A stretch of 64,000 bases of DNA, taken from the NCBI GenBank assembly GCA_017522795.1, contig JAFWXZ010000070.1:6202-70201 (forward strand). Direction: 5' to 3'. Below, piece by piece: positions 46,504-64,000 of the stretch. A program made the position numbers and the translations under genes. How positions within the stretch are numbered: position 1 is the first letter of the stretch; each line of letters starts with the position of its first letter. The notes below the pieces were generated by a model. That model was not told the origin of the DNA. It ran no database searches and saw nothing but the letters and a program-made list of their open reading frames with translations. Source of the stretch: Clostridia bacterium. Lineage in GTDB: Bacteria > Bacillota > Clostridia > Oscillospirales > CAG-272.

Positions 46504-46702
46504 ATATATAAACTCCATACCCATAATTCCAATATTAATTATGTATAAGATGTCTGAAAACTAACACTTCGTGCAAAAAAAACATTTTTTTGTGCTAAAT
46601 AATAGAAAAATTATCAAAAATATGTTATTATTATTTTAGATAATTATACATTTTTTACAATTTGTGAAATTACGACAAATTTTTGAAAGGGATTTTGATA
46701 AA

Positions 46703-49116: not shown

Positions 49117-49827
49117 ATGATTCATATTGCAGTTGTAGATGATGAGTCAAGCTACGTAACTCAAATTCAACAATATCTTAAGCAATACGAAGCAGAGAGC
49201 GGAGAGTTCATAAAAACCTCCGTCTTTTACGACGGTGATAGCATCGTTCATAAATATCGCTCTCAGTTTGACATTATTTTAATGGACGTAGAGATGAAAT
49301 TTATGGACGGTATGAGTGCCGCAGAGGAAATAAGAAAAATAGATTCTGAGGTAGTGATAATCTTTATTACCAACACTCCCCAATATGCTATTAGAGGCTA
49401 TGCGGTGGAGGCGCTTGATTATCTTTTGAAACCGCTGTCCTATTTTGCATTTTCTCAATGCCTTGGAAGAGCTATCAGCCGCATGAAAAACCGAATATCA
49501 AAGGCTGTTACCGTCAATATCAAGGGTGGCACGGCAAGGCTTGACGTGGCGGATATATATTACGTAGAGAGTCGCGGTCACAATATGATATATCACACCA
49601 CATCCGGAGAGTATGAGGCATCCTCTACTATGAAGGAAACCGAGGACACCCTTGGTGATATGGGTTTTTTCCGAGCGAGTAAATGGTATCTTATCAATCT
49701 TGCTCACGTTGACGGCTTCAAAGATGGCTATGCAAAGCTGCCGGGTGCCGAGCTCGCCGTTTCAAGAGCAAAGAAAAAGGAGTTTATGGAGGCGCTTACC
49801 GCTTATTGGGGAGGAGTGATCAAATAA
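49117..49827 (+). CDS. LytTR/AlgR family response regulator
   Basis: Receiver domain (IAVVDDE...ILMDVEM) plus a C-terminal LytTR DNA-binding domain (IYYVESRGHNMIYHT...FFRASKWYLINLAHV). Confidence 0.9.
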   Translation: MIHIAVVDDESSYVTQIQQYLKQYEAESGEFIKTSVFYDGDSIVHKYRSQFDIILMDVEMKFMDGMSAAEEIRKIDSEVVIIFITNTPQYAIRGYAVEALDYLLKPLSYFAFSQCLGRAISRMKNRISKAVTVNIKGGTARLDVADIYYVESRGHNMIYHTTSGEYEASSTMKETEDTLGDMGFFRASKWYLINLAHVDGFKDGYAKLPGAELAVSRAKKKEFMEALTAYWGGVIK

Positions 49828-51140
49828 TGATAGGGCACGCAGTACCGGATATTCCAAGATATTATACTGCTCTTGCAGAATGGCTTTCCTGCGGACTTTT
49901 CGTCATCCTGCTTGGACCGAAGCTCAGCAAGCCTAAGCTTGCGATCGTAGGGGTTATTTATCTCGCTGCCCTCACTATGTTTATGGAGCTTACCGCCACT
50001 ATAACTCTCTGGCTTTGGATACCCTGTATGGTAGCCGCGTTTCTTTCAATGGCTGTATTTATATGGTTCGCCAACAAAATATCATTTTATGAAAGCGTAT
50101 TCTATGCAGTAATGGCATTTTCCATAGCGGAATGTATAGCTTCGCTGGAATGGCAGATAGTAAACTCTATTTACACGGACATCAACCAAATGCCTTGGTA
50201 CATAGAGATATTTGCTCTGACAATAGTTTACGGCATCGTTCTGTTTTCTCTGTGGAAGCTGCTAAGCACAAGAATAAATAAGGAAAGACGTCTTAGTATA
50301 GAAAAAAGAGATTGGTTTATTTCTCTGTTTATTTGTGTTATAGTATTCGGCTTCAGCAACTTGAGCTTTATAACCGTATCATCCTCTGTATCGGGACAAT
50401 ATTTCAAGGAAATAGCATACACCAGAACGCTTGTGGATATAGCGGGAGTGGCTATGCTTTACGCCCACTTTCTTACCTGTAGAAACAATATGGTAAACCG
50501 TGAGCTTAATGCGGTGCAGAATGCTCTGAAAAATCAGTACGTTCAGTACAAGCAGTCCAGAGAAAGCATTGATATTATCAATATGAAATATCACGATCTA
50601 AAGCATCAGATCAATATGCTCAGAAGCCTTAACGACAACGAGCAACGCAGCGCCTTTCTTGACAGTATGGAGGCGGATATCCGCGCATACGAGCTGCAAA
50701 ACAAAACCGGCAACAGCGTTCTTGATACTTTAATTATAGGTAAAAGCATGTATTGCTCAAAGCACGGTATCACGATGACTGTGGTTGCAGACGGAAAGCT
50801 GCTTGATTTTATGGACTCTATGGACATCTGCAGTATATTTGGAAACGCATTGGATAACGCAATAGAATCGGTTATGAAAACCAATGAGAAGGAAAAGCGT
50901 CTTATACACCTCAGCGTGTCGCAGGTAAAGTCCTTCGTTATGATACGTATTGAAAATTATTATGAGGGAGATCTAAAAATTGACGACGGAAACTTCATTA
51001 CTACAAAAAATGATAAGCGTTTTCACGGCTATGGTATCAAGAGTATAAAATACACGGTTGACAGATATGACGGCGTTGTAAATATCAATGCGGAAAATCA
51101 TTGGTTTGAGCTTAAAATTCTTATTCCTTACAATAACTAA
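49827..51140 (+). CDS. Agr-type (HPK10) sensor histidine kinase, GHKL ATPase with a polytopic N-terminal sensor
   Basis: 6-7 TM helices. H-box KYHDLKHQINML, N-box FGNALDNAIES, G-box HGYGIKSIK. TAATG overlap with the regulator gene. Confidence 0.88.
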   Translation: MIGHAVPDIPRYYTALAEWLSCGLFVILLGPKLSKPKLAIVGVIYLAALTMFMELTATITLWLWIPCMVAAFLSMAVFIWFANKISFYESVFYAVMAFSIAECIASLEWQIVNSIYTDINQMPWYIEIFALTIVYGIVLFSLWKLLSTRINKERRLSIEKRDWFISLFICVIVFGFSNLSFITVSSSVSGQYFKEIAYTRTLVDIAGVAMLYAHFLTCRNNMVNRELNAVQNALKNQYVQYKQSRESIDIINMKYHDLKHQINMLRSLNDNEQRSAFLDSMEADIRAYELQNKTGNSVLDTLIIGKSMYCSKHGITMTVVADGKLLDFMDSMDICSIFGNALDNAIESVMKTNEKEKRLIHLSVSQVKSFVMIRIENYYEGDLKIDDGNFITTKNDKRFHGYGIKSIKYTVDRYDGVVNINAENHWFELKILIPYNN

Positions 51141-51400: not shown

Positions 51401-51982
51401 ATGGAAAAAATCAAAGATTTATGGAATAAATTTGCGCAAAGCCATCCCAAGCTTTCGCAATGGGTAAGAGAAGGCGGGCTTTTCGTTATCGTAAGTAACG
51501 TAATCACCGTTTTTAAGTATTTGCTCCTCACATTTTTGCCCGCGGCGTTTGCCTTTATGGGCAGTCAGGATTTCGGATTTCCCGGTATTGACATTACTCT
51601 CTTCGGCATTGAGTTCAAGTGGTATATAATCGGATACGGTGCAGATCAGGGCGGCGCGGCATACTTCACCGCATATATGATAGCTATGGTTATCGGTGAG
51701 GTTATAAACTTCTTTATCCAGCGCAAGTATGTGTTCCGTTCCAACGGTAATATTGTCCGTCAGGGTGCCTGGTATTTCCTTGCCTTCTGCGTAGTCACCT
51801 GCGTGGTTAATTCCATTAACTGCATCTGGGCGGCCGTGGCAGGTCACTTCGTTGATCCTTGGCTTTATAACATCGGTACAACCGTTCTTAACGGCGGTGT
51901 TTCTATGGTAGTTTTCTTTGTTGTTAATAAAATAGTTTTTGAAAGCAAAAAGGAGGAGGAAAAAGAAAAGTGCGAGGAATAA
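51401..51982 (+). CDS. GtrA-like family membrane protein
   Basis: 4-TM protein with the FIQRKYVFRS motif typical of GtrA-like proteins. RBS AGGGAG upstream of the ATG at 51401. Confidence 0.7.
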   Translation: MEKIKDLWNKFAQSHPKLSQWVREGGLFVIVSNVITVFKYLLLTFLPAAFAFMGSQDFGFPGIDITLFGIEFKWYIIGYGADQGGAAYFTAYMIAMVIGEVINFFIQRKYVFRSNGNIVRQGAWYFLAFCVVTCVVNSINCIWAAVAGHFVDPWLYNIGTTVLNGGVSMVVFFVVNKIVFESKKEEEKEKCEE

Positions 51983-52926
51983 CAAAAATATCCTTTGTTA
52001 TAGTACTTTTTTGTCTGATGCTTTCCTGCACGTTGCTTACGGGATGTGAGACTATAAATACACTCAAAGAAAAGTTTGAGGAGATGAGTCAGAATAACGG
52101 TTCTTCGGTAGACGATGACAACCTGTCAGACGGAGATCAAAACGGTGATACGGATGGCGATGATATTCATATCAATGGCAGCTGTACACACAGTCTCAAA
52201 AAGCTTGATTGGGTAGCCCCCACCTGCATCGCTGAAGGTAAGCGCGGCGCCTTCCAATGCAAGCTCTGCGGCAAAATCTTTGAATATTTTGCCGAAAAGG
52301 ATGGGCTTGTAGAGGTTAAGGAGCAGAGCAGTATTCCGAAGAAGGATCATACCGTAAGCAATAAATACGGCATACGTCTTAAATCGGGAGTCAGTAAGGC
52401 AACGAGCTTTTCCGACTATGAAATCGTCACGGTGTGCAATACCTGCGGCACAGGATTTGCGGTCGGGGAGAGCGATCTTAGACCCTTTACTCCATCTACT
52501 AAGGTTCTGTATGACGACGTCACCCCTGTAAGCTTTACGCGTGACACGGTTGACGGTTTAGTTTCAACCACTTATATCTTTCCTTCATCTACCAAGGTCG
52601 GTATTCACAATTGGGTATATCACAACAATGATAGCGGAAAGCTTGACGCAAACACAAAGGTTCCGTTCTCGGCAAATACCGATAGGTATATTCTGATGAT
52701 GGTAAAAAATAACTCGGGCGAGAAAGTCACCTTTAAATACGGAGCGGAATACTATTCCACCTATTGCTGGTCTGAGCCCGTCACCGTTGAAGGCGGAGAG
52801 TATCAGGCGTTTGTTCTGAAGCTTAACTTTAGCGGCTCGGATTACGCCTGCTATCACACCATACAGCTTCTTGACTCCATATCCAATGACGTCAGTCTGA
52901 CGTTCAGCGGCTTTTACGTAAATTAA
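51970..52926 (+). CDS. Lipoprotein A: His-Cys3 module(s) plus shared beta-sandwich domain
   Basis: GTG start after AGGAGGAGG. Lipobox LLTGC. Module CTHSLKKLDWVAPTCIAEGKRGAFQCKLCGKIF. C-terminal domain with PFSANTDRY...VTFKYGAEYY...LTFSGFYV, paralogous to 55226 and 53930. Confidence 0.75.
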   Translation: MRGITKISFVIVLFCLMLSCTLLTGCETINTLKEKFEEMSQNNGSSVDDDNLSDGDQNGDTDGDDIHINGSCTHSLKKLDWVAPTCIAEGKRGAFQCKLCGKIFEYFAEKDGLVEVKEQSSIPKKDHTVSNKYGIRLKSGVSKATSFSDYEIVTVCNTCGTGFAVGESDLRPFTPSTKVLYDDVTPVSFTRDTVDGLVSTTYIFPSSTKVGIHNWVYHNNDSGKLDANTKVPFSANTDRYILMMVKNNSGEKVTFKYGAEYYSTYCWSEPVTVEGGEYQAFVLKLNFSGSDYACYHTIQLLDSISNDVSLTFSGFYVN

Positions 52927-52939
52927 GGAGGTAATAGCG

Positions 52940-53842
52940 GTGAAAAAAATACTCGTAAAAGCAATTGCCTTAATTACATTGCTTACCTGCCTTACCTCTC
53001 TTCTCGGAGCGACCGCCGTTTCTAATAAAACCAATGATGGAGATAACAGCGTAAAGCTCAATGCATCATATGAAATAATGAGCTTCAACATCCGTACCGA
53101 CGTGGACGGAGGACAAAGAGCCTGGTCCTATCGGGGAGAGTATCTGATGGATTACATAAGAGAGCATGGCGCGGACGTGGTTGCTCTCCAGGAGGTAAAG
53201 CGCTCTCAGTTTTCTTCTATAAAGGCATCTCTCTCCGATGTGTATCAAATGATATATTTTGAGAGAGATACAGCGGCGGATCCCGAGGGACTTGCTATCC
53301 TGTATTCATATGAATTCGAGCTTGTTAAAGGGGATGTCTTCTGGCTCAGCGAAACTCCCGATGTGATGTCTAAGGGCTGGGACGCCGATTATCACAGAAT
53401 ATGCGTTCACGCTCTGCTCCGCAGCTGCTACGGCAACTATCTTGACGTATACAATACCCATCTTGAATGGGCGGGCGAGAGGGCGAGAAACGAAGGACTC
53501 AGGCTTATCGTTGACAGGGCGTCTGAAAGCCAATATCCATCAATCATATGCGGAGACTTCAATGCAACCGAGGATGAGGATACCTACGATATTATCGGAA
53601 GCAGATTTAACGACACCGCAAAGCTTGCTCCGGTAAGCGACAGCGGATGGACTGCCCACGATTGGGGACTTTTTGATCCCGAATGGTCAAAGCCTATCGA
53701 TTTTATTTTTACAAGTAAGAATATTAAGGTCGATAAGTTTGATATTTTACAGGACGTTATCTCCGATGGCGTATATTACTCCGATCACTACGCCGTGACT
53801 GCTAAGCTGAATTATGATTACGTTCTTAAATATGTAGATTAA
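52940..53842 (+). CDS. Secreted endonuclease/exonuclease/phosphatase (EEP) family protein
   Basis: Signal peptide. EEP motifs VVALQEV, GDFNATEDE and SDHYAV. Confidence 0.85.
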   Translation: MKKILVKAIALITLLTCLTSLLGATAVSNKTNDGDNSVKLNASYEIMSFNIRTDVDGGQRAWSYRGEYLMDYIREHGADVVALQEVKRSQFSSIKASLSDVYQMIYFERDTAADPEGLAILYSYEFELVKGDVFWLSETPDVMSKGWDADYHRICVHALLRSCYGNYLDVYNTHLEWAGERARNEGLRLIVDRASESQYPSIICGDFNATEDEDTYDIIGSRFNDTAKLAPVSDSGWTAHDWGLFDPEWSKPIDFIFTSKNIKVDKFDILQDVISDGVYYSDHYAVTAKLNYDYVLKYVD

Positions 53843-53929: not shown

Positions 53930-55213
53930 ATGAACAAAACGAAAAGAATTTTCGCTGTGACCGCTATGCTTATCGTGCTTATTGCATGCGCTATGCTGGC
54001 GGGATGCTCACCCGATTCCGGTGACACCGGGTTTTCTCACGTTCACACTCTGACCAGAGTCGCGCCCAAGGCAGCTACCTGTCTTGAGGACGGAAACAGA
54101 GAGTACTACATTTGCAGCGGATGCAACAAGACATTCGGCGATGCCGAGGGCAACGCTCCCATCACAAGTGAAAAATACGTTATTCCCGCAAAGGAGCATA
54201 ACGTAGCAATGCACAGTGAGAAAAAGGCGACTTGCTTTTCCAATGGAATCAAGGCATATTACGAATGCAGAAACTGTGGCACACTCTTCAGAGATGCTGA
54301 CGGTATGTTTGAGATAAGCGCTCCCGCTTCTATTCCCGCGACATCTCATTCGCTTACCAAGGTGGAGGGAAAGGCAGCTGTAGGATTTACGTCCGGTTGG
54401 CAGGAGCATTATGCCTGCGATAACTGTGACAAGCTCTATAAGGATGCCCTTGGAACTATAGAAACTACCTTTGATGAGATCAAGATCGTTCCCGTGCTTA
54501 CTGATTTTGAGTACAAGATAGCATTCACTCCCGCGGCAAATATTGATAGCGGCTCAAATTACATATCTGCATCCTACGTTGAGGTCAACGGACTTCCCGC
54601 TACGGAATTCACCCTCAAGGCAGGCACTCCCGCAGATACCGAGGCTTACGCGTGGATCCACCAGACTGTATCTCAGACTATGCCCCAGGGAATAAATCTC
54701 AGAATTCCCACCTTCAGCGGTAAGGAAAAGAAGCTGTCTCTCACAGTTACCAATAGCGGTTCCGAGGATATATCCTTCCGCTTCTACGCTGAAAACTACG
54801 GAGATAAGGGCGGCGTTAACGTTACTGTTGGCGCAGGAGAAACCAAGACCGTAGAGTTCACCATCAATCCCGGATCATCCACCGGATGTAATCTTCCTAT
54901 CAAGATTCTGAGCAGTGTAAATCAGGAGACCAAGCTTACAATGCAGGGCTTCTTCTACTGCGAGGGAGAGGTTGACGGCATTTCTCTGTACAAGGATGCG
55001 GAAAAGAAGACCTTTAAGGTTGGCGACAAATTTAGCACCGACGGACTTGTAGTTAAGGCTAAGGGCTCAAGCTATGACGAGGTCGTTATTGCAAATTATA
55101 TGACGGATATCGAGGAGGGCTACGTATTCACCGCAGAGGACGTCGGTACAAAGACCGTCACCGTTGCGTACGGCGAATACACTACCACCTACGAAATCAC
55201 TATTGAATCCTAA
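53930..55213 (+). CDS. Lipoprotein B: three His-Cys3 modules plus shared beta-sandwich plus Ig-like domain
   Basis: Lipobox LAGC. Modules HVHTLTRVAPKAATCLEDGNREYYICSGCNKTF and EHNVAMHSEKKATCFSNGIKAYYECRNCGTLF, plus a degenerate third. ISFRFYAENYGDKGGVNVTVGAGE core. Terminal Ig-like domain (KTVTVAYGEYTTTYEITI). Confidence 0.8.
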   Translation: MNKTKRIFAVTAMLIVLIACAMLAGCSPDSGDTGFSHVHTLTRVAPKAATCLEDGNREYYICSGCNKTFGDAEGNAPITSEKYVIPAKEHNVAMHSEKKATCFSNGIKAYYECRNCGTLFRDADGMFEISAPASIPATSHSLTKVEGKAAVGFTSGWQEHYACDNCDKLYKDALGTIETTFDEIKIVPVLTDFEYKIAFTPAANIDSGSNYISASYVEVNGLPATEFTLKAGTPADTEAYAWIHQTVSQTMPQGINLRIPTFSGKEKKLSLTVTNSGSEDISFRFYAENYGDKGGVNVTVGAGETKTVEFTINPGSSTGCNLPIKILSSVNQETKLTMQGFFYCEGEVDGISLYKDAEKKTFKVGDKFSTDGLVVKAKGSSYDEVVIANYMTDIEEGYVFTAEDVGTKTVTVAYGEYTTTYEITIES

Positions 55214-55225
55214 GGAGTGAAGATT

Positions 55226-57028
55226 ATGAGTAAAATTATTAAGAAAATTATAGCATCTTCGCTTTTAGCCGCAACCCTACTGATAGGAATCGGCGCGCTC
55301 AGTAGCTGTAACGTTGATTGGGATTACTGCCAGCATAAGCTGGAGGAGATACCAAAAAGTGAAGCAAGCTGTATGAAGGTCGGCAAGAAGACCGCCTATC
55401 AGTGCGTAAAATGCGGAAAGCTCTTTGCCTACGGCTATCTCAACGGCAAAGACGGTACAAAGGGCATTTATGAGATCAGCAGTCAGGAAATGCTTGACTA
55501 TTCTAACCACAAGATCGGAGATCTTTACGGTGATCTCAAGGCAGATATGACAACCTTTGATGCATCCAGCCTTGAGGACTTCTCTGTTTGGTCGCACTGC
55601 TCCGAGGAGGGCTGCGGCGAGGCGTTTGAGGTAGAATTACAGAATCTTATTCCATTTGCTCCCTGTGACAACACCAGCGGAAACGCAGATTACGTTGTAG
55701 TAGGCGAGGAAACGGATGCTACGAGATTTGAGATTCCCGCAAATACCCAGTCGGGCAAGTGTATCACAATATATACCGGTGGTAGCAAAATGAATACCGC
55801 CACAAACAAGATCCCCTTCTCCGCAAATACCGACCGTCACGTTATCCTCTTCTTCCACAATGACGGAAATCAGGACGTTAACGTCAGATACGGTACCGAA
55901 TTCTACGGCGAGAGAGTAGGCGTTGACGTGACAGTTCCCGCAAACGGCTACGCTACTGCTTATCTTAATATTAATATGACTCAGTCCAACAGCGACTGCT
56001 ATCACGAGCTGTATATAAATAGCGACATTAAGGAGAGCTTCGGACTTACAATTTCCGGCTTCTATTACAACGAGGCGAAGCTTCAGAGCGTTAAGATCGG
56101 AGAGTATCCCAAGGTCGAGTATGCTATCGGTGAGGTATTCAGCACCGAGGGACTTGAGGTGGTTGCAAAGTTCGGAGATATTGAGCGCAAGCTTGATGCG
56201 GATGATTACACCCTCGTTCTTAACAACAATAAGCCCATTACCGAGCCTCTCACAGAAGAGGATGACACGGTTTACGTAATCTACAAGAACAAGCAGACCA
56301 GCTTTACCATCAAGGTTCAGAGATATGAGCAGACAGTAAATCTCGTTGCCGCTACCTTTGCAGACGGCACCGCATCTGCGGTTCTTGATAGAAATTCTAT
56401 CATTCCTGCGGATATCGTTGCTACCAACGGTAAGACCATCGAGTACTTCATTGACCAGTACGGCGCGAAGTATGTTCCCGGCGAGGGCAGAGTTCCCGCG
56501 TATAACGCAACTCTTTCTCCCGTATATAGCGGAGTAAGCTTCAGCGATAACTACGCTCTCGGTGCAGACGTAAGTGTAAGCAGCACCTCGCACGGTGGAT
56601 CTAAGGGATCTCTCGTTGACGGTGTTAATTCTGTCAATTCCGATGCGGACGGAAGATGGTCCTCTAAGTCGAACTATGAAACTGCTACTCCCGACGAGGA
56701 AAACAGAGAGTGGGTAATGGTAGACCTTGGCGAATCGAAGTCTATCTGCCAGGTAGTTCTTTATCCCAGAGTATACGGCGGTTACTTCCCCGAGACCTAC
56801 GAGATTCTTGTTTCTGAGGACGGCGAAAAATGGAAGAGTGTAGTATCTGTTGAGTACGACGAGCTGGCATCTAAGGGTTCAGCTCTCGGAAGATGGAATG
56901 GCTTTGAAAGCGTGAACGCGCGCTACGTAAAGGTTGTTGCCATCAAGATGACCGATGACGGCGGCGGAGCAGGCTATATCTTCCAGCTTTCCGAAATAGA
57001 AATTTATGGCGAAACTTCGGGAAATTAA
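55226..57028 (+). CDS. Lipoprotein C: His-Cys3 module(s) plus shared beta-sandwich plus Ig-like domain plus F5/8 type C (discoidin) domain
   Basis: ATG 8 nt after AAGGAG. Lipobox LSSC. Module CQHKLEEIPKSEASCMKVGKKTAYQCVKCGKLF. PFSANTDRHVILFF...VNVRYGTEFYG...LTISGFYY. C-terminal discoidin-like REWVMVDLGESKSICQVVLYPR. Confidence 0.8.
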   Translation: MSKIIKKIIASSLLAATLLIGIGALSSCNVDWDYCQHKLEEIPKSEASCMKVGKKTAYQCVKCGKLFAYGYLNGKDGTKGIYEISSQEMLDYSNHKIGDLYGDLKADMTTFDASSLEDFSVWSHCSEEGCGEAFEVELQNLIPFAPCDNTSGNADYVVVGEETDATRFEIPANTQSGKCITIYTGGSKMNTATNKIPFSANTDRHVILFFHNDGNQDVNVRYGTEFYGERVGVDVTVPANGYATAYLNINMTQSNSDCYHELYINSDIKESFGLTISGFYYNEAKLQSVKIGEYPKVEYAIGEVFSTEGLEVVAKFGDIERKLDADDYTLVLNNNKPITEPLTEEDDTVYVIYKNKQTSFTIKVQRYEQTVNLVAATFADGTASAVLDRNSIIPADIVATNGKTIEYFIDQYGAKYVPGEGRVPAYNATLSPVYSGVSFSDNYALGADVSVSSTSHGGSKGSLVDGVNSVNSDADGRWSSKSNYETATPDEENREWVMVDLGESKSICQVVLYPRVYGGYFPETYEILVSEDGEKWKSVVSVEYDELASKGSALGRWNGFESVNARYVKVVAIKMTDDGGGAGYIFQLSEIEIYGETSGN

Positions 57029-57041
57029 CAGGAGGTAAGAT

Positions 57042-57443
57042 ATGTTCAGATTAAGCTATAAAACATTTATTCTTGTCCCTGCATCCATACTTTGTATGAT
57101 CGTACCCTTCGTGTACAAGGCAGGCTTTGACAACACACAGTATTTCACTCAGGAGGCATATACGCTTCCCTTTATCCTGTGTTCAATCGCTTTGGTTATC
57201 TCTATATTCAACGGAAGATACGGCTCACTTGCAATGTTCCTTTCGGCATTTGCGTGCCTGCTTTCCTTTGTAAACGCATCCTATCTCTATCTTTCCAGCG
57301 TATTTTTCAGCGGTATTCCGGACACATTAGGCGCTATGCTTGAGCAGATTGGATTTAACTGGTCGTTCTGTGCACTTTCTCTTCTCGGCGCAATGCTCGT
57401 CGGCATAGTTTCTATGTTTCTTCCCGACGGTAGCAGTATTTAA
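57042..57443 (+). CDS. Small 4-TM membrane protein
   Basis: RBS AGGAGG. Four hydrophobic helices. Separated by 13 nt from lipoprotein C and by 12 nt from the GH3 gene. Confidence 0.6.
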   Translation: MFRLSYKTFILVPASILCMIVPFVYKAGFDNTQYFTQEAYTLPFILCSIALVISIFNGRYGSLAMFLSAFACLLSFVNASYLYLSSVFFSGIPDTLGAMLEQIGFNWSFCALSLLGAMLVGIVSMFLPDGSSI

Positions 57444-57455
57444 GGAGGCGACATA

Positions 57456-60400
57456 ATGAAAGTTGTATTATCATTTATTTCTAAATTACTACTCGTTATT
57501 TTCGTAATACTTTACGGTGTAGTAAACGTTGGCGGTCAGATCGCTGCTGCCAATGCAAGCGTAATTTCCAAGTTCCTCGGCCAGGACGGATTTAACATGG
57601 TCAAGGACGAGACCCTTGGTGCAGATGAGGAGCTTGACACCGAGTACTTCAAGTCCGAATACTCAAGCGTAAGCGACCTGAAGGCTAACGGTGAGAGGCT
57701 TACTCAGCTCGTTATGGAGGAAGGCGCGGTTCTTCTCAAGAACGACAACAGTGCGCTTCCCCTTTCCTCAACCGATAAGATCAGTCTCTTCTCCGCCTCC
57801 TCGGTAAGCCCCATTTTCTCAGGCTACCGCGAGCACAACGATAAAAGCAGCGGTACAACCAACCTTCTTGACGGCTTTACCGCAGCAGGTCTTGATGTAA
57901 ACCGTGAGCTTTACAACTGGTACAAGTCCAGCAACTACGGACGTCAGTACATCAACGGCCCTGGCCTATATGCTATCGTTAACATCAACGACGCTCCTTG
58001 GAGCGCAATTCCCGACAGCGCAAAGTTTGCTGAAGGCTACAATACCGCTGTGTTTGTTCTCTCCCGTATAGGCGGTGAGGGTACCGATAACCAGATGTTT
58101 GATAACGGCGAAAGCAACAATAGCAGAGGCTATGAGTGGGATGGCTACAATGGCAACTATCTCGCTCTCAGTGAGGATGAAAGATCCGTTCTTCAGGGGC
58201 TTAAGGCTGCCAAGGACGCAGGTCAGTACGACAAGATCATCGTTCTCTGCAACTTCACCAACCAGGTAATGCTCGATTTTGTTGACGATCCCGCATACGG
58301 CGTTGACGCAGTTCTTTACAGCGGTGGCTTGGGCTCCAAGGGCTCGGTAGCTATTGCCAACATCCTTAAGGGTACTGTTAACCCCTCGGGTAAGCTTTCC
58401 GACACCTTCTGGAAGAATCATTATCTCAACCCCGTACACGCAAACTACGGTCAGTATAAGCTTGATACCTCTAAGATCGGTGACTACTACGCATACTCCT
58501 CCTACATTTATTTTGATACCAACGGCAAGGAGGTTTCCACCAGTGCAGGCAACCAGAACGGATACGTGGTATATCAGGAGGGTATTTACGTAGGCTACAG
58601 ATACACCGAAACCAGATACGAGGATAAGGTTATGGGCACGGGTAATGCAGGTAACTTCAATTACTCTGCCGCTGTTTCCTATCCCTTCGGCTACGGTCTT
58701 TCCTACACCAGCTTTGAGTATTCGGATTACAGCGTAATCTACAATGCAGAGACCGATTCTTACGATATCAGCGTTAAGGTTAAAAACATTGGCAGCGTTG
58801 CAGGTAAGGAGTCTGTTCAGATCTTCCTGCAGAAGCCCTATACCGAGTATGACAAGCAGATGGGAGTTGAGGCTGCGGCAGTTGAGCTTGTAGCTTACGA
58901 CAAGACCGATCTTCTTGAGCCCGGCGCAGAGCAGACGCTCAATATGTCGGTTGAAAGACGCGATTTCGCAAAGTACGATTCCTACGGTCACAAGACCTAT
59001 ATTCTCGAGGAAGGCGAATACTACCTGGCGGCAGGTAAGAACGCGCACGATGCCGTAAACAACATTCTTGCGGCAAAGGGCTTCTCTACCGCTGACGGTA
59101 TGGACGAAGCAGGTAATGCAAATCTTACCGCTCTCGTTGGATTTGCCGATTCCGAAAACGACAAGAGAATCACATCCGACGATCTTCTTCTCTATTCCAC
59201 CGCTAAGGTTAACGTTTACTCCGATAAGGATGCGGACGGAAACCTTGTTGGCAAGCTTATCACCAATCAGTTTGACAACGCAGATCCCAAGATCTTTGAC
59301 GGTGGTGTAAACTACGGTGAGAATGCTCTTGGCGGCGCCTGGACCTACGTTACCAGAAACAACTGGGCAGGCACCGTAAAATATGCTGTAGCTGTTGACG
59401 AGGCAACAGGCTACGTAAGCAGCTATGACAGACTTAACAACTTCGTAAGACTTGTAAAGACGGATGCTATCAAGGCAGGACTTGACTTTGATATTCTTGA
59501 TGAGGCTGCAAGCGACGTTGCATACCCCACCTTTGGATCTACCCAAACCGCATGGCAGCTTATCGACCTCAGGGTTGATGAGAACGGCAATCCCATCGCT
59601 TACAACGATCCCCGTTGGGATGAGCTTCTTGACCAGCTCTCCTGGGACGATTACGTAGCTATTCTCGCGGGCGGTCTTTACAACACTCCCGGTCTTTCCT
59701 CTATTTCCGCGCCCACTTCTAACACCTACGACTCAGACCTCGGTGTTATTTCCAAGTACAATATGTACCCCTCGGGCCTTGCTACAAAGCTTAACGATCC
59801 TGACAAAAACACATCTCCCGCGACCTATGTTGACAACGGCATCGTTGCTGCAACCCGCAATCTTGACCTCATTTACGAATACGGTATTCAGTGGGGCGAG
59901 GACTGTCTGTGGGCAGGCTTTAACGGTCTCTATGGTGCAGGCGCCAACATTCACAGAAGCCCCTATCTCGGCAGAAGCTACGGATATATTTCCGAGGACG
60001 GCTTCCTCTCCGGTATGACTCTCGCAAAGATGAATCTCGGTATGGAGACCAAGGGCGCGTATATGCTTGCAAAGCACTGCGTTCTTAATGAACAGGAGAC
60101 CAACCGCTGTGGCGCAGCGTCCTGGGCAAACGAGCAGTCCATCCGTGAGATATACGTAAAGGTATTTGAGGTAGCTATCGAGGAGGGCTCTCTTCAGGGT
60201 GTTATGACCTCTCTTAACCGTATCGGAACAACTCCTGCTCCTCACCACACCTTCCTTAACGAGGTTCTTCGTTATGAGTTTGGTATGACGGGCTACAACG
60301 TAACCGACTCCGGTATGCCTTATATGAACACCGCAAACTGCGTATGGGCAGGTAACGATCTTCCTATCAACGGCGTATCTCACACAGTTCCCGATATTCC

Positions 60401-60644
60401 CGAGACAGGCTACGGTCATCTTGCTCAGGCGGCAAGAGATTGCGTACACAACGTTCTCTACACCGTTGTAAACTCTAGCGCTATGAACGGCTTCTCATCC
60501 GATATGAGAGTAGTTCGATTCCAGCCCGAGTGGGAATACTTCCTCGGAGTAGCAACCGACATTATCAACGTTGCTATAATTCCCGTAGTAGTATTCTATA
60601 TCGCAATTGAAATATGGGTAGGCATTAGAAGAAGATTCTTCTGA
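57456..60644 (+). CDS. Glycoside hydrolase family 3 protein, domain-permuted, with N- and C-terminal TM anchors
   Basis: N-terminal TM. GH3 alpha/beta-sandwich domain first (EEGAVLLKNDNSALPL ... FGYGLSYTSFEYSD). Next an FnIII-like domain. Then the barrel domain with the nucleophile region GMTGYNVTDSG. C-terminal TM (IIPVVVFYIAIEIWVGI). Confidence 0.82.
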   Translation: MKVVLSFISKLLLVIFVILYGVVNVGGQIAAANASVISKFLGQDGFNMVKDETLGADEELDTEYFKSEYSSVSDLKANGERLTQLVMEEGAVLLKNDNSALPLSSTDKISLFSASSVSPIFSGYREHNDKSSGTTNLLDGFTAAGLDVNRELYNWYKSSNYGRQYINGPGLYAIVNINDAPWSAIPDSAKFAEGYNTAVFVLSRIGGEGTDNQMFDNGESNNSRGYEWDGYNGNYLALSEDERSVLQGLKAAKDAGQYDKIIVLCNFTNQVMLDFVDDPAYGVDAVLYSGGLGSKGSVAIANILKGTVNPSGKLSDTFWKNHYLNPVHANYGQYKLDTSKIGDYYAYSSYIYFDTNGKEVSTSAGNQNGYVVYQEGIYVGYRYTETRYEDKVMGTGNAGNFNYSAAVSYPFGYGLSYTSFEYSDYSVIYNAETDSYDISVKVKNIGSVAGKESVQIFLQKPYTEYDKQMGVEAAAVELVAYDKTDLLEPGAEQTLNMSVERRDFAKYDSYGHKTYILEEGEYYLAAGKNAHDAVNNILAAKGFSTADGMDEAGNANLTALVGFADSENDKRITSDDLLLYSTAKVNVYSDKDADGNLVGKLITNQFDNADPKIFDGGVNYGENALGGAWTYVTRNNWAGTVKYAVAVDEATGYVSSYDRLNNFVRLVKTDAIKAGLDFDILDEAASDVAYPTFGSTQTAWQLIDLRVDENGNPIAYNDPRWDELLDQLSWDDYVAILAGGLYNTPGLSSISAPTSNTYDSDLGVISKYNMYPSGLATKLNDPDKNTSPATYVDNGIVAATRNLDLIYEYGIQWGEDCLWAGFNGLYGAGANIHRSPYLGRSYGYISEDGFLSGMTLAKMNLGMETKGAYMLAKHCVLNEQETNRCGAASWANEQSIREIYVKVFEVAIEEGSLQGVMTSLNRIGTTPAPHHTFLNEVLRYEFGMTGYNVTDSGMPYMNTANCVWAGNDLPINGVSHTVPDIPETGYGHLAQAARDCVHNVLYTVVNSSAMNGFSSDMRVVRFQPEWEYFLGVATDIINVAIIPVVVFYIAIEIWVGIRRRFF

Positions 60645-60806
60645 TAAATAAAAAATGCCGATAAGCTCGGCTCAAATAATACGACAAGCAACTCCGCGCG
60701 GTATATTCCCCCTCGCCGAGGGGGAACGACCGCAACACCTTTTAAAACCTAACGGCACGTGCCGCAAAAATAAAACAAAAAAACAAAAGGATAAAAGGAG
60801 AAAAAT

Positions 60807-63800
60807 ATGGAAAAGTTCAAGAAAATCTTGAGAACTGTCCTCATTCTGTCTGTTATCGTCGGCGTAGTATGTATTGCTACGTCCTGCGACGTAATAGGCG
60901 GAATCTTCGGTGGTCATACTCATAATCTGACCATCGTTGAAAAGATCGACGCAACCTGTACCGAGGCAGGTCAGGAAGCATACTTCAAATGTGACGGATG
61001 CGATCAGCTCTTCGCAGATATCGAAGGCAAGAACGCTATTGAAGCTCCTGTGGCTATCGCTCCTCTCGGTCATAAGATCGTAGGCGTAGCGGGCACAGAG
61101 CCCACCTGCACCGAACCCGGTATCGCAGACTGCTTCAAGTGCTCCAGATGTGAAGCTGTTTTTGCGGATGCAAAGGGCGAGAATAAGATCGAGGCTCCCG
61201 TAACCAGCGCCCCCCTCGGCCACTCTCTCGTTAAGACCTCCGCAAAGGCTGCTACCTGTACTGCTGACGGCAACAACGAATACTACACCTGCTCCGTATG
61301 TAAAAAGGTTTACAAGGATGCAGATGCAAAGACCGAAACCACTGCTGCGGCTGAGATCATCAAGGCAAGCGGTCACGCAGAGGTAAAGCACGATGCAAAG
61401 GCTCCCACCTGTACCGAAAAGGGTTGGGACGCATACGTGACCTGTAAAAACTGCGATTACACCACCTATGCAGAAAAGGCAGCTCTCGGTCACGACGAGA
61501 TCAGCCACGATGCAAAGGCTCCCACCTGTACCGAAAAGGGTTGGGACGCATACGTGACCTGTAAAAATTGCGATTACACCACCTATGCAGAAAAGGCAGC
61601 TCTCGGTCACGACGAGATCAGCCACGATGCAAAGGCTCCCACTTGTACCGAAATCGGTTGGGATGCATACGTGACCTGTAAAAACTGCGATTACACCACC
61701 TATGCCGAAAAGGCAGCTCTCGGCCACAAGCTTACTAAGACCGAGGCAAAGGACGCTACCTGCCTTGAGGACGGTAACGTAGCATACTGGACCTGTTCCT
61801 CCGTCTGCAAGCAGATCTTCTCCGATGCAGAGGGCAATAACGTTATCACCAACACCATAATCCCCGCAAAGGGACACACCCTTTCCGAAACCCTTATCGT
61901 AGAGGGCGCAGTTAAGAATTACGAGCCCGGCTCAAGCTTCGATGCATCCAATCTTGTAGTAAAGCTTGATTGCAAGGATTGCGATTATACCAAGGAGGTT
62001 ACCGGCTATACTCTCAGCAAGACAGAGAACCTTCAGCCCTCTGATAACGCGGTAGTTGTTACATATGTAGAGGACGGTAAGACCTATACCGCTTCTATAG
62101 CTATTGTAGTAGTTCACGTACACGTTACCGGCGATCTTGTTCCCGCCGTTGCTCCCAACTGTACCGAAACAGGTACTCTTGCATACTATGAGTGCGAAAT
62201 TTGTAAGCATAAGTTTGCAGATAAGGACGCAACCGAGCTTTACGAGTCGGTTGTTGTTCCTGCTCTCGGTCACGACGAGATCAGCCACGAGGCAAAGGCT
62301 CCCAACTGTACCGACATTGGTTGGGACGCATATGTGACCTGCAAAAATTGCGATTACACTACCTACGTAGAAAAGGCAGCTCTCGGTCACTCCACCTCTA
62401 AGGTTGATGCAAAGGCTCCCACCTGTACAGAGGAAGGCTACGAGGCATATTACACCTGTAGCGGCTGTGATAAGCTCTTCTCTGACGCAGATGCTAAGAA
62501 TATTATCCCTGCTCCTATCGTTGTAGGCGCTCTCGGCCACGACGAGATCAGCCACGATGCAAAGGCTCCCACCTGTACAGACATTGGTTGGGACGCATAC
62601 GTGACCTGTAAAAACTGCGATTACACTACCTATGCCGAAAAGGCAGCTCTCGGTCACAATGCTACCAAGACCGAGGCTAAGGAATCCAGCTGTACCGAAG
62701 CAGGTAATAACGCATACTGGACCTGCTCTGTTTGCGGTAAGGTTTACTCCGACGAGGCTTGTACCGTTGAGACCTCGGTTGAGGCTGAGACTCTTCCCCT
62801 TGCAAAGCATGAAACCAATCTTCTCTCAGATGCAAACGGTCACTGGTACGATTGCGCTAACTGTGACTATGTAACCGATAAGGAAAACCACAGCGGCGTC
62901 GCTTATCCCGATGCAGCTCCCAAGTGTACAGTTTGTGACACCGAGTTCGGTAAGGCAAGCTGGGACGGCTGGGTTCTCTTCAGACCCGGTATCGTAGAGG
63001 TTGCAGGCGGCTCTGTTACCTCCGCATCTCATGTAACTGTTAACGGCATTATGGCAAGCCAGTACGTATTCGGCGCAGGCTCTGCAGGCTCCGACAGCAC
63101 TATCTGGACTATGTCCGATGCTTCTGATTACAACAACGGAATGTATCAGGTAAGAATTCCTACCGTTGGCGATAACGAGAGATATATTTACCTCTACGTT
63201 TCCAATGATGGCGACACCGACATCAGCTTCAGAATCTACTCTGAAAACTATGGCGACAAGGGCGGCGTTGACGTAACTCTTGCTGCTGGCGAGAGCGGCT
63301 GGTTCAAGTATTCGGTACACACCGGTACAACCATTGGTTCTAACGTAAACCTTAAGCTTCTCTCCGATCTTGCTTCTGAGACCACCGTTACTATCTATGG
63401 CTACTGGCATCTTGAGACAGAGGAGATAGCGAACCTTGATATTGCTAACAGAAGCGAAATCAAGCTTTCCTACCGTGCAGGCGAAAAGTTCAGCCTTCCC
63501 GAGCTTATTCTCGTCTCCAATATTTTCTCTAATAACGAGAACGACCTTCTTAACAATGGCGGTGCTGTAGAAAAGTATTATATTGCAAGCAACTTTACAG
63601 TTTCCGGCCTTGAGATCGGACAGACCCTTGAGGCAGGCAATTACACAGTAACCGTATCCTTTGGCGGTAAGAGCGTTGAGCTTCAGATTGTCGTAAGCTC
63701 CCATACTCACGCTCCCGAGCTTGTTGCAAAGAAGCCCGCAACCTGTACTGAGGACGGTTATGAGGCATATTACATCTGTAATGTAGACGGCTGCGGTCAG

Positions 63801-64000
63801 CTCTTCGCAGATGCAGAGGGTAATACTCCCATCTCTTCTATCACTACTCTTCCCGCAGGACATGTTGAAAGCGCTGCTATCCCGGGTCATAAGGCAATCT
63901 GCCCTAGATGCGGAGCAGAGAGCGGCGAGGTTCTTGATCCCGACGGATGGGTACATTTCGCACCCGGCGTTGTTTGGTCCGACTACTATGAGGGTATCTA
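60807..64000 (+). CDS. Giant lipoprotein D (over 1064 aa, 3' end outside the window): at least 15 His-Cys3 modules, two Ig-like domains, at least one shared beta-sandwich domain
   Basis: Not in the supplied track because it has no stop in the window. RBS AAAAGGAG 6 nt upstream of the ATG at 60807. Signal plus lipobox (ILSVIVGVVCIATSC). The frame is open for 1064 codons with host-typical codon usage. ISFRIYSENYGDKGGVDVTLAAGE is paralogous to lipoprotein B. Confidence 0.88.
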   Translation, partial: MEKFKKILRTVLILSVIVGVVCIATSCDVIGGIFGGHTHNLTIVEKIDATCTEAGQEAYFKCDGCDQLFADIEGKNAIEAPVAIAPLGHKIVGVAGTEPTCTEPGIADCFKCSRCEAVFADAKGENKIEAPVTSAPLGHSLVKTSAKAATCTADGNNEYYTCSVCKKVYKDADAKTETTAAAEIIKASGHAEVKHDAKAPTCTEKGWDAYVTCKNCDYTTYAEKAALGHDEISHDAKAPTCTEKGWDAYVTCKNCDYTTYAEKAALGHDEISHDAKAPTCTEIGWDAYVTCKNCDYTTYAEKAALGHKLTKTEAKDATCLEDGNVAYWTCSSVCKQIFSDAEGNNVITNTIIPAKGHTLSETLIVEGAVKNYEPGSSFDASNLVVKLDCKDCDYTKEVTGYTLSKTENLQPSDNAVVVTYVEDGKTYTASIAIVVVHVHVTGDLVPAVAPNCTETGTLAYYECEICKHKFADKDATELYESVVVPALGHDEISHEAKAPNCTDIGWDAYVTCKNCDYTTYVEKAALGHSTSKVDAKAPTCTEEGYEAYYTCSGCDKLFSDADAKNIIPAPIVVGALGHDEISHDAKAPTCTDIGWDAYVTCKNCDYTTYAEKAALGHNATKTEAKESSCTEAGNNAYWTCSVCGKVYSDEACTVETSVEAETLPLAKHETNLLSDANGHWYDCANCDYVTDKENHSGVAYPDAAPKCTVCDTEFGKASWDGWVLFRPGIVEVAGGSVTSASHVTVNGIMASQYVFGAGSAGSDSTIWTMSDASDYNNGMYQVRIPTVGDNERYIYLYVSNDGDTDISFRIYSENYGDKGGVDVTLAAGESGWFKYSVHTGTTIGSNVNLKLLSDLASETTVTIYGYWHLETEEIANLDIANRSEIKLSYRAGEKFSLPELILVSNIFSNNENDLLNNGGAVEKYYIASNFTVSGLEIGQTLEAGNYTVTVSFGGKSVELQIVVSSHTHAPELVAKKPATCTEDGYEAYYICNVDGCGQLFADAEGNTPISSITTLPAGHVESAAIPGHKAICPRCGAESGEVLDPDGWVHFAPGVVWSDYYEGI
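61389..61727 (+). repeat. Near-perfect 117-bp tandem repeat x 2.9 inside the lipoprotein D gene; dispersed copies at about 62271-62390 and 62538-62657
   Basis: Units start at 61389, 61506 and 61623. Each encodes HDAKAPTCTE(K/I)GWDAYVTCKNCDYTTYAEKAALGHDEIS. Only a few substitutions between units. Confidence 0.92.

Follow-up and report, generated by a model that had tools for sequence, protein, structure and literature searches.

A 64,000-nucleotide stretch of contig JAFWXZ010000070.1 from an uncultured Clostridia bacterium (the window) ends inside a gene for a 1614-residue surface lipoprotein in which small Cys/His-rich modules are strung together behind an N-terminal lipid anchor. We propose, with a probability of roughly 60%, that these modules form a zinc-stabilised stalk of variable length that lifts glycan-binding domains off the membrane. 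The motif H-x11-12-C-x3-G-x6-7-C-x2-4-C matched 13 times in the 1064 residues encoded within the window against a mean of 0.0035 matches in 2000 residue shuffles, so the small extracytoplasmic His+Cys3 repeats noticed in an earlier sequence-only reading of this DNA are real. The module is already known, by prediction and without a family description, from one protein, the immunoglobulin A (IgA) protease of Thomasclavelia ramosa. New here are the size of the family, its short flavour, at least four swap-related unit types, and an N-terminal lipid-anchored architecture with a cargo that resembles carbohydrate-binding modules (CBMs). Also new is direct evidence of module-precise length variation, which is lacking in the IgA protease.

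Module anatomy and length variation between strains

The module gene occupies the plus-strand frame from 60807 and is still open at 64000 (frame translation). It was missing from the mechanical list of open reading frames (ORFs) because the frame runs off the end of the window. We recovered the complete 1614-residue product from contig L005 (12697-17541), which is 100% identical over the common 1064 residues. Modules M1-M7 occupy residues 37-356 and are followed by an Ig-like unit (357-436), modules M8-M12 (437-667), and the units M13 and M14 (668-719). After M14 come three cassettes, each composed of a beta-rich domain of ~150 residues, here called domain X, and a Big_3-like domain of ~85 residues; the cassettes are separated by pairs of a long module and a variant unit at residues 966-1045 and 1291-1370. 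The protein has no C-terminal anchor.

Canonical modules follow the pattern H-x11-C-x3-G-x6-C-x2-C, in which the His-x11-Cys-x10-Cys spacing is constant and the tail after the C-x2-C knuckle runs to 12-25 residues. They come in two flavours, a short one of 39 residues (HDEISHDAKAPTCTE.GWDAYVTCKNCDYTTYAEKAALG) and a long one of 50-52 residues with a longer tail. At the DNA level, M4-M6 constitute a 117-bp tandem repeat of 2.9 copies with 96% identity (Tandem Repeats Finder); the short modules are pairwise 86-94% identical in DNA, and the long modules are more diverged. The sequence-only reading had described thirteen consecutive modules at 60915-62960 interrupted once by an Ig-like domain. The interruption was borne out, and the modules resolved into 12 canonical and two variant units. 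Of the two further modules that it placed at about 63700-63950, one is canonical (M15) and the other is a variant (M16). The alternation of flavours that it reported holds for the second run only, the full order being L L L S S S L (Ig) L S L S L (L, long; S, short). Nor are the modules as regular as it stated: M1, M8, and M15 open with H-x-H rather than G-H, and the knuckle is C-x3-C in M7 and C-x4-C in M15.

The H-x-H start is a feature of run-opening modules, which read HTH, HVH, and HTH at residues 37-39, 437-439, and 966-968 of the window protein (60915-60923, 62115-62123, and 63702-63710) and HVH at residues 37-39 of the product of ORF 53930-55213. It recurs in M17 and in the first subdomain of the IgA protease; modules inside a run have just one His. 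The short modules M4-M6, M9, and M11 (61374-61724, 62271-62387, and 62538-62654) share a second His (H-x4-H), conserved at 90% or more in alignment A1; neither this His nor the conserved aromatic residues of the short flavour (W18, Y21, Y29, and Y32) is required by a Cys3His site. An extra Cys is present in the tail of long modules M12 (SDEACT, residue 651, ~62757) and M17 (SDAACQ, L005 residue ~1330), M15 having ADAEGN without it, and the D-x-x-C tail is also found in the homologs P0124, P0252, and P0153. The unit following M17 is without the second His that M16 has, and the tail Cys of a long module might donate a ligand to the site of the next unit.

We compared the array between strains by locating the same locus in other samples through GH3 (glycoside hydrolase family 3) orthologs more than 90% identical. 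The product of the module gene was 1614 residues long in the window and in contigs L005, L087, and L092, 1575 residues in L089 and L091, and 1315 residues in L088; the neighbouring genes were constant across the strain contigs (318, 300, 427, 600, 133, and 1062 residues). The length variants were 98.7-98.9% identical, with one gap each. The gap in the 1575-residue allele (residues 195-233) amounts to one 39-residue module, and L089 is without exactly M5. The gap in the 1315-residue allele (residues 195-493) starts within M4 and ends at the equivalent position of M9, and the junction module of L088 is a clean chimera with the 5′ part of M4 and the 3′ part of M9, the crossover lying within a shared ~10-20 bp. 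No exact repeat in the array is longer than 74 bp, which is below the k of 141 that the k141_ names of three contigs (L088 and L091 among them) point to, and assembly collapse is therefore unlikely.

A DNA-similar tandem array and whole-unit length differences between strains were thus both found in this gene, and it is by this pairing of near-identical DNA repeats and whole-module alleles that periscope proteins are defined (PMC8201768). The rigid rod that also belongs to a periscope protein is suggested here by the order of anchor, array, and CBM-like cargo and by the small-angle X-ray scattering (SAXS) of a homolog.

A putative structural zinc in each module

To describe the conservation of the module, we used 148 best representatives that were less than 50% identical to one another. 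Among 3,888 aligned modules, C13 was conserved in 98%, G17 in 100%, C24 in 100%, and C27 in 98% (module numbering). A His lay 9-16 residues before Cys13 in 97.2% of 3926 cores (mode, -12) and in 93.6% of the run-opening modules. The His is thus conserved in homologs, a point on which the sequence-only reading had staked its zinc hypothesis.

Cys and His interchange at these positions. In 34 otherwise canonical modules, Cys13 is replaced by His (P-T-H), which makes up 24% of the non-Cys residues there, and 42 of the 109 modules without the His carry Cys at its position. Units that have no Cys13 and carry a His at position -3 of the knuckle occur in the product of ORF 53930-55213 and in P0269-P0272 (EHYAC) as well as in the 2His+2Cys subdomain III of the IgA protease (KHKEC). 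The sequence-only reading had picked out the first of these (54347-54499) as a module that had lost its first Cys, with metal binding consequently in doubt. The loss is real, but the gain of a His at -3 of the knuckle marks it, on the sequence, as a ligand swap and not as decay. Over modules in general, the association between Cys13 loss and a His just before the knuckle was weak (32% versus 23%, p 0.047) and confounded by register errors of the regular expression. Cys/His swaps relate at least four unit types to one another. Besides the canonical module, these are the HW type of M13, a type with His at -3 of the knuckle (EHYAC/KHKEC), and H-x-GG-x-ATC-x5-C-x2-C, which is seen in homologs.

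Because a metal site can accept Cys in place of His, or the reverse, at a fixed position and a disulfide cannot, these swaps favour zinc over disulfides. Together with the odd number of Cys residues (three) and the anaerobic hosts, they favour one structural zinc ion per module, which we regard as likely. The ligands would be His1, Cys13 of the (A/P)-T-C motif, and Cys24 and Cys27 of the knuckle in which the second long strand ends, all from the same unit, with His replacing Cys13 in the variants. In the window protein, each unit that starts with His has exactly one C-x2-4-C, and no boundary His follows the last unit before domain X (M14, M16, and the third unit of the 427-residue neighbouring lipoprotein); in combination with the constant His-Cys spacing, this argues for ligands drawn from within one unit.

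We modeled two parts of the protein with AlphaFold2 (AF2). The model of residues 186-310, which comprises three short modules (32-row alignment), was all beta, with a mean predicted local distance difference test score (pLDDT) of 91.9 and a predicted template modeling score (pTM) of 0.51; so low a pTM despite the high pLDDT is as expected for a rod. Four-residue strands were assigned at relative positions 3-6 and 21-24 along with bridges (DSSP), and no helix was predicted in the short flavour. In the model of residues 617-872, the long module M12 (pLDDT 96-98) had the same two strands and a short-helix tail, the latter matching the published description of subdomain I of the IgA protease. M13 had three strands (pLDDT ~90), M14 scored 56-79, and domain X was a beta-sandwich. 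If strands 3-6 and 21-24 pair antiparallel, His1 would adjoin the 24-27 knuckle, and, coming right after the previous sheet, it would make the site link the sheets as well, as in the published models. Foldseek found no match in the Protein Data Bank (PDB) for the three-module model (best E 0.38, TM <0.2), an elongated query being a poor probe for a 40-residue fold.

We propose the following mechanism. The protein would be exported and lipid-anchored at Cys27 of its lipobox. Each all-beta module of 39-52 residues, almost devoid of a hydrophobic core, would be held by one tetrahedral zinc, the long flavour adding to the same core a tail of 10-13 residues with a short helix. Joined head to tail, as the AF2 models and the SAXS of the homolog suggest, the units would give an extended, fairly stiff rod. 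At the ~37 Å per unit of the IgA protease homolog, the 14 units between the anchor and the first of the three cassettes would reach ~50 nm, enough to carry domains from the cytoplasmic membrane through and beyond the Gram-positive wall, and with the Ig-like unit and the equivalent of five modules missing, the rod of the shortest allele would be ~20 nm shorter. The rod would thus carry three CBM-like/Ig cassettes outward, where they could be exposed to bind glycans, and the GH3/GH2 locus with its three shorter lipoproteins built of the same parts would provide the setting for glycan capture at the surface. Recombination among the near-identical short-module repeats would tune the length of the rod between strains.

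Several points weigh against this mechanism. Zinc sites with Cys thiolates are unusual outside the cell and sensitive to oxidation. A His follows nearly every module as well as preceding it. Because almost all runs are followed by variant units that bring a His themselves, a comparison of opening, internal, and closing modules did not tell the module's own His from that of the next unit, and the statistics leave some room for the latter as a ligand. The length alleles are read from a repeat region in metagenomes assembled from short reads. With 1-3 modules apiece, the three neighbouring lipoproteins could not span a wall, which suggests that spacing may be only part of the function, and the short flavour, 70-84% identical across Clostridia metagenome-assembled genomes (MAGs), is conserved more tightly than a passive spacer needs. 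The likeness of domain X to CBMs was derived from a shallow alignment (11 informative rows) and Foldseek E values of 1e-4 to 1e-3, with one loop at pLDDT <50. In the IgA protease, 2His+2Cys sites were placed at the subdomain interfaces for all three sites of the ZBD1 region, though subdomain I has three Cys (PMC12237041), which sits uneasily with the ligand set proposed here, and these sites rest on AlphaFold models of a region that is absent from the solved structures (PMC12237041, PMC12415215).

It is improbable that the modules are metal-free and held by disulfides or packing, with the His serving a structural or hydrogen-bonding role. The extracytoplasmic location, where disulfides are usual, would suit such a module, and the recombinant IgA protease needs a reducing agent to remain monodisperse, which shows reactive thiols (PMC12237041). 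However, each module has three Cys, an odd number, its His is 97% conserved, and swaps from Cys to His and from His to Cys are seen at the proposed ligand positions. Moreover, the hosts are strict gut and rumen anaerobes, in keeping with the rubredoxin and flavodiiron genes that adjoin the module gene, and reducing surroundings disfavour disulfides; the authors' models of ZBD1 are also without disulfides (PMC12237041). An array that responds to zinc or stores it, the occupancy of 14-69 sites setting rigidity or length or buffering zinc at the surface, seems to us very improbable: the density of putative sites per protein is indeed very high, but Cys3His and Cys2His2 sites are normally high-affinity, structural, and slow to exchange, and the locus has no zinc-uptake or zinc-regulator genes.

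The modules might instead bind targets themselves, as a multivalent adhesin or lectin-like array that uses, for example, the Trp and Tyr residues of the short flavour; this could coexist with a stalk, but we consider it unlikely. In favour of it, the short flavour is strongly conserved between distant Clostridia (70-84% identity over three modules), W18, Y21, Y29, and Y32 look exposed and, like the second His, are surplus to a Cys3His site, the neighbouring lipoproteins have only 1-3 modules, and some proteins (e.g., P0001) are almost wholly modules. Nevertheless, the aromatic residues may simply form the mini-core of a 39-residue domain, and the modules combine in a stalk-like manner with unrelated domains (protease, cohesin, dockerin, leucine-rich repeat, and CBM-like). 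Their copy number changes freely between near-identical strains, and the corresponding region is dispensable for catalysis by the IgA protease (PMC12237041). The zinc-stabilised stalk remains the reading that we prefer.

Distribution, cargo, and gene neighbourhood

The survey of distribution and partner domains that the sequence-only reading had suggested was carried out with a 49-position profile of 24 modules, which we searched against 1.84 billion representative proteins. The profile matched 40,904 proteins at E<=1e-3, mostly from gut and rumen Clostridia, of which 20,433 remained at E<=1e-10 and 5,343 at E<=1e-30. The matched proteins had up to 69 matched stretches and lengths of up to 6,716 residues, and a word-indexed search returned at least 8,000 candidates. 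The short flavour was found at at least 514 loci in species-representative genomes, nearly all of them from Clostridia of ruminant and human guts: Oscillospiraceae, Acutalibacteraceae, Ruminococcus, Lachnospiraceae, and Faecalibacterium, including the cultured F. tardum and F. intestinale. Its identity across different Clostridia MAGs was calculated over three modules. A few module contigs (L010, L056, L070, L071, L079, L083, and L084) were binned as Bacteroidaceae, Paludibacteraceae, Sphaerochaetaceae, or Mollicutes MAGs; these may have been binned wrongly, or the module may have spread beyond the Clostridia.

A signal-like N-terminus was present in 124 of the 148 representatives. In a sample of 38 proteins, the partner domains were cohesin (6), dockerin (3), SLH (3), BspA-type leucine-rich repeats (3), Big_2 (3), and choline-binding repeats (2), in addition to fn3, Flg_new, and transglutaminase. 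These N-termini and partners indicate that the module lies outside the cytoplasm and combines freely with cargo and anchor domains of unrelated kinds. Dozens of metagenomic proteins (P0001, P0003-P0034, and others) share a near-identical signal peptide, MKKWLIRCLTVLAMVCLIPG, and differ both in the Cys-rich units behind it and in the number of modules (7-14); to all appearance, they are a secreted family that is diversifying fast within one gut lineage.

The cargo of the window protein is represented by domain X, which carries the motifs IP(F/T)S.N.DR, N.G...(I/V).F.Y..E.YG, and (L/V)T..G(F/Y)(F/Y/W). Two further copies lie beyond the window (L005 residues 1046-1200 and 1371-1525), and the domain stands downstream of the modules in all four module-bearing lipoproteins of the locus. 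Foldseek returned 22 PDB matches for the model of residues 617-872 (E 8e-5 to 1e-3; TM, normalized to the target, up to 0.59), most of them of CBM4/6/11/16/22/29 type, a porphyran-binding CBM, or glycan-binding or -degrading proteins, including Bacteroides SGBP-B (7KWC and 7KWB). Domain X had no Pfam match and four relatives in each of two database searches, about eight in all. We treat its assignment as a CBM, suggested by the model, as a lead and not as a result. For the hybrid unit between M7 and M8, the Big_3-like pattern is weakly supported; BLASTP aligned it with the Big_3-like end of ORF 53930-55213 at E 0.26. In Pfam Big_3, that end scores 19.3 bits, below the cut-off of 21.2, and the corresponding segment of P0269 scores 23.1 bits, above it.

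A hidden Markov model (HMM) built from the window modules detected modules in three upstream lipoproteins (one, three, and one copies), which have clear lipoboxes (LLTGC, MLAGC, and ALSSC). In the 427-residue lipoprotein, the third module is the EHYAC unit, an arrangement conserved in P0269-P0272. The 603-residue lipoprotein also has an F5/8 type C domain (Pfam F5_F8_type_C, E 7e-18). Variant units of the M13/M14 type are also present in the IgA protease and in diverse homologs. The GH3 enzyme encoded just before the module gene has a hydrophobic segment at each end and, judged from its sequence, is probably a membrane-anchored extracellular glycosidase. With a second GH3, a GH2, and a two-component system nearby (Table 1), the locus as a whole has the appearance of a surface system for glycan capture in a Gram-positive version. 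At the place of window positions 49117-51140, the gene caller reports a single 675-residue product with no Pfam match in the contig of one sample (L001/L006); the regulator of the locus may differ between strains, or the genes may have been called differently. The antisense ORFs at 60672-61877, 61932-62810, and 62826-63956 (minus strand, 292-401 residues) were without support and are probably by-products of the repetitive, compositionally biased coding strand.

Table 1. Positions of the module gene, its parts, and neighbouring genes in the window
Positions	Strand	Feature	Details and basis
60807..64000	+	Surface lipoprotein gene	5′ 1064 codons of the gene for the 1614-residue protein; rest beyond window
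60807..60887	+	Lipoprotein signal peptide	MEKFKKILRTVLILSVIVGVVCIATSC; lipobox ATS/C, Cys27; read from sequence
60915..61373	+	Modules M1-M3	Long flavour, 52, 50, and 51 residues; module alignment and HMM, 69-80 bits each
61374..61724	+	Modules M4-M6	Short 39-residue flavour; 117-bp tandem DNA repeat; site of inter-strain copy-number differences
61725..61874	+	Module M7	Long flavour, C-x3-C knuckle; module alignment and HMM
61875..62114	+	Hybrid unit, 80 residues	Initial His357, Big_3-like Ig segment, embedded C389-x2-C392-DY
62115..62807	+	Modules M8-M12	Order L S L S L; module alignment and HMM
62808..62963	+	Variant units M13 and M14	M13: pattern H..GHW..C-x2-C..H, with H668, H678-W, C682-x2-C685 (2His+2Cys type); M14: pattern H..C-x2-C, with H694, C706-x2-C709
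62964..63416	+	Domain X, copy 1	Beta-sandwich, CBM-like predicted fold; paralog alignment, AF2, Foldseek
63429..63701	+	Big_3-like Ig domain	Follows domain X; aligns with C-terminal segments of ORF 53930-55213 and P0269
63702..63941	+	Module M15 and variant unit M16	M15: long, C-x4-C; M16: H1019, H1027, C1030-x2-C1033; opens second cassette
52189..52350	+	One module in 318-residue lipoprotein	ORF 51970-52926; HMM E 1.3e-6
54044..54499	+	Three modules in 427-residue lipoprotein	ORF 53930-55213; HMM and sequence
55334..55441	+	One module in 603-residue lipoprotein	ORF 55217-57028; HMM E 2.6e-4
57456-60644	+	GH3 enzyme	Permuted order GH3_C, Fn3-like, GH3 N-terminal domain
57042-57443		133-residue protein with four transmembrane segments	Just upstream of the GH3 gene
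46664-49105		Another GH3	
40092-42440		GH2	
49117-51140		LytTR two-component system	Response regulator and histidine kinase
52940-53842		Secreted EEP-family enzyme	

Known families and related systems

We searched Pfam-A and NCBIfam with the protein, its fragments, and ~50 homologs and found no above-threshold match for the module; the sequence-only reading had likewise been unable to name a curated family. RYYR-CCHC, Tad3, zf-C2H2, zf_UBZ, Antiterm, BCNT, and others matched only below threshold or by adding up partial stretches and were rejected as families. The most consistent of these matches among the homolog scans was PF23674 (RYYR-CCHC), which was the top Pfam family for the 427-residue lipoprotein and for the M8-M14 fragment but not for M1-M7. 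The center of its profile aligns with the C-x3-G-x6-C-x2-C core, and its name implies a site of three Cys and one His. Its scores were 12.1 and 20.4 bits for the fragments and 21.2 for the 427-residue lipoprotein against a cut-off of 27; the match was limited to profile positions ~26-60 of 79, the multi-module scores sum stretches of which none passes alone, and the search of the whole target protein gave no match at E<=1. PF23447 (DUF7128), considered as a model of the HW-type variant, did not match proteins rich in that unit.

By its sequence pattern, the module is also not a classical zinc ribbon. It shares with ribbons such as the C-terminal domain of TFIIS a C-x2-C knuckle at a beta-hairpin, but it has one knuckle instead of two, the place of the second being taken by a single His and a single Cys separated by 11 residues, and the Zn_ribbon Pfam families scored below their cut-offs. 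In the long flavour, Y-x-C-x2-C-G-K-x-F-S locally resembles the consensus hairpin of a C2H2 finger. Only this hairpin (profile positions 20-37) aligns to C2H2 fingers in the PDB, however, and no paired His follows the knuckle. Unlike ribbons and C2H2 fingers, the units described here are extracellular and stand in long arrays.

Among all PDB sequences, the sole real match was the T. ramosa IgA protease chain of 9QA6 (Q9AES2, M64), with a phmmer E value of 7.2e-8 for the protein and 58.2 bits (E 5e-15, profile positions 1-45) for the module profile. The matched region is ZBD1 of one report (PMC12237041) and CTD2 of another (PMC12415215), ZBD1 and ZBD2 being the same as CTD2 and CTD4. In these 2025 papers, two groups independently predicted Cys/His zinc sites in the region and, relying only on AlphaFold models and SAXS, described it as a rod that binds zinc and may be novel (PMC12237041, PMC12415215). 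ZBD1 is ~110 Å long for three subdomains, and its subdomain I has a distant resemblance to the TFIIS zinc ribbon (PMC12237041); for the isolated protease domain, SAXS fits a fully extended rod (PMC12415215). In full-text literature searches, the module family was described only in these two papers, and no paper on RYYR-CCHC was found. The novelty claimed in the sequence-only reading is weakened to this extent, the module having been described but remaining uncurated.

The resemblance to the IgA protease is one of true homology. Subdomain I (HTHNLTLVAAKAATCTTAGNSAYYTCDGCDKWFADA...GH) is a long-flavour module, and subdomains II and III correspond to the M13-type unit and the EHYAC unit of the window. 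Both regions are extracellular and all beta and probably form rods; for both, Cys/His zinc sites are predicted and the role of a stalk has been proposed. The protease has 3+2 non-identical units near a C-terminal sortase anchor, whereas the window protein has 14 units after an N-terminal lipid anchor. The protease region has no short 39-residue flavour, tandem near-identical repeats, or reported length variation, and its cargo is a protease rather than a CBM-like domain.

Taken jointly, the module and its Cys/His-swapped variants may amount to one of the largest undescribed extracellular superfamilies (>40,000 clusters at 50% identity, up to 69 copies per protein), serving as the main stalk element of gut and rumen Clostridia. 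It would be the first periscope-type rod with an intramolecular Cys/His zinc in each link, a solution open only to anaerobes, and would tie surface architecture to zinc supply and redox state; we put this combined claim at slightly less than even odds. If the zinc site and the rod are real, an abundant uncurated block of the surface proteins of Faecalibacterium, Ruminococcus, Oscillospiraceae, and related groups would gain a name and a function, and tens of thousands of giant hypothetical proteins in gut and rumen metagenomes could be better annotated. It would also show how lipid-anchored proteins of Gram-positive anaerobes reach through the wall, add a metal-dependent class to the periscope proteins, and suggest, in a form open to testing, that the display of glycan-binding, cellulosomal, and immune-evasion proteins depends on how much zinc the gut offers or on its redox conditions. 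With a curated HMM, there would be an end to the spurious sub-threshold matches to eukaryotic zinc-finger families.

At the level of the locus, the closest systems are the surface glycan-binding proteins (SGBPs) of polysaccharide utilisation loci, such as Bacteroides thetaiotaomicron SGBP-B (7KWC, 7KWB), which are likewise lipid-anchored multi-domain proteins that hold CBM-like beta-sandwiches clear of the membrane and are encoded beside glycoside hydrolases. In contrast to the window protein, SGBPs sit in a Gram-negative outer membrane and use Ig-like spacers; they have no Cys/His modules and no sequence relationship to it. At the level of the array, the closest are the periscope proteins (SHIRT repeats of Sgo_0707, G5-E of SasG/Aap, and Rib), which have a surface-anchored rod of DNA-similar tandem repeats, differ between strains by whole repeats, and carry a functional domain at the far end (PMC8201768). 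Their fold is unrelated, and their repeats are larger, metal-free or with zinc only between molecules (Aap), and anchored to the wall by sortase, whereas the units of the window protein are 39-52 residues long, rich in Cys and His, and lipid-anchored.

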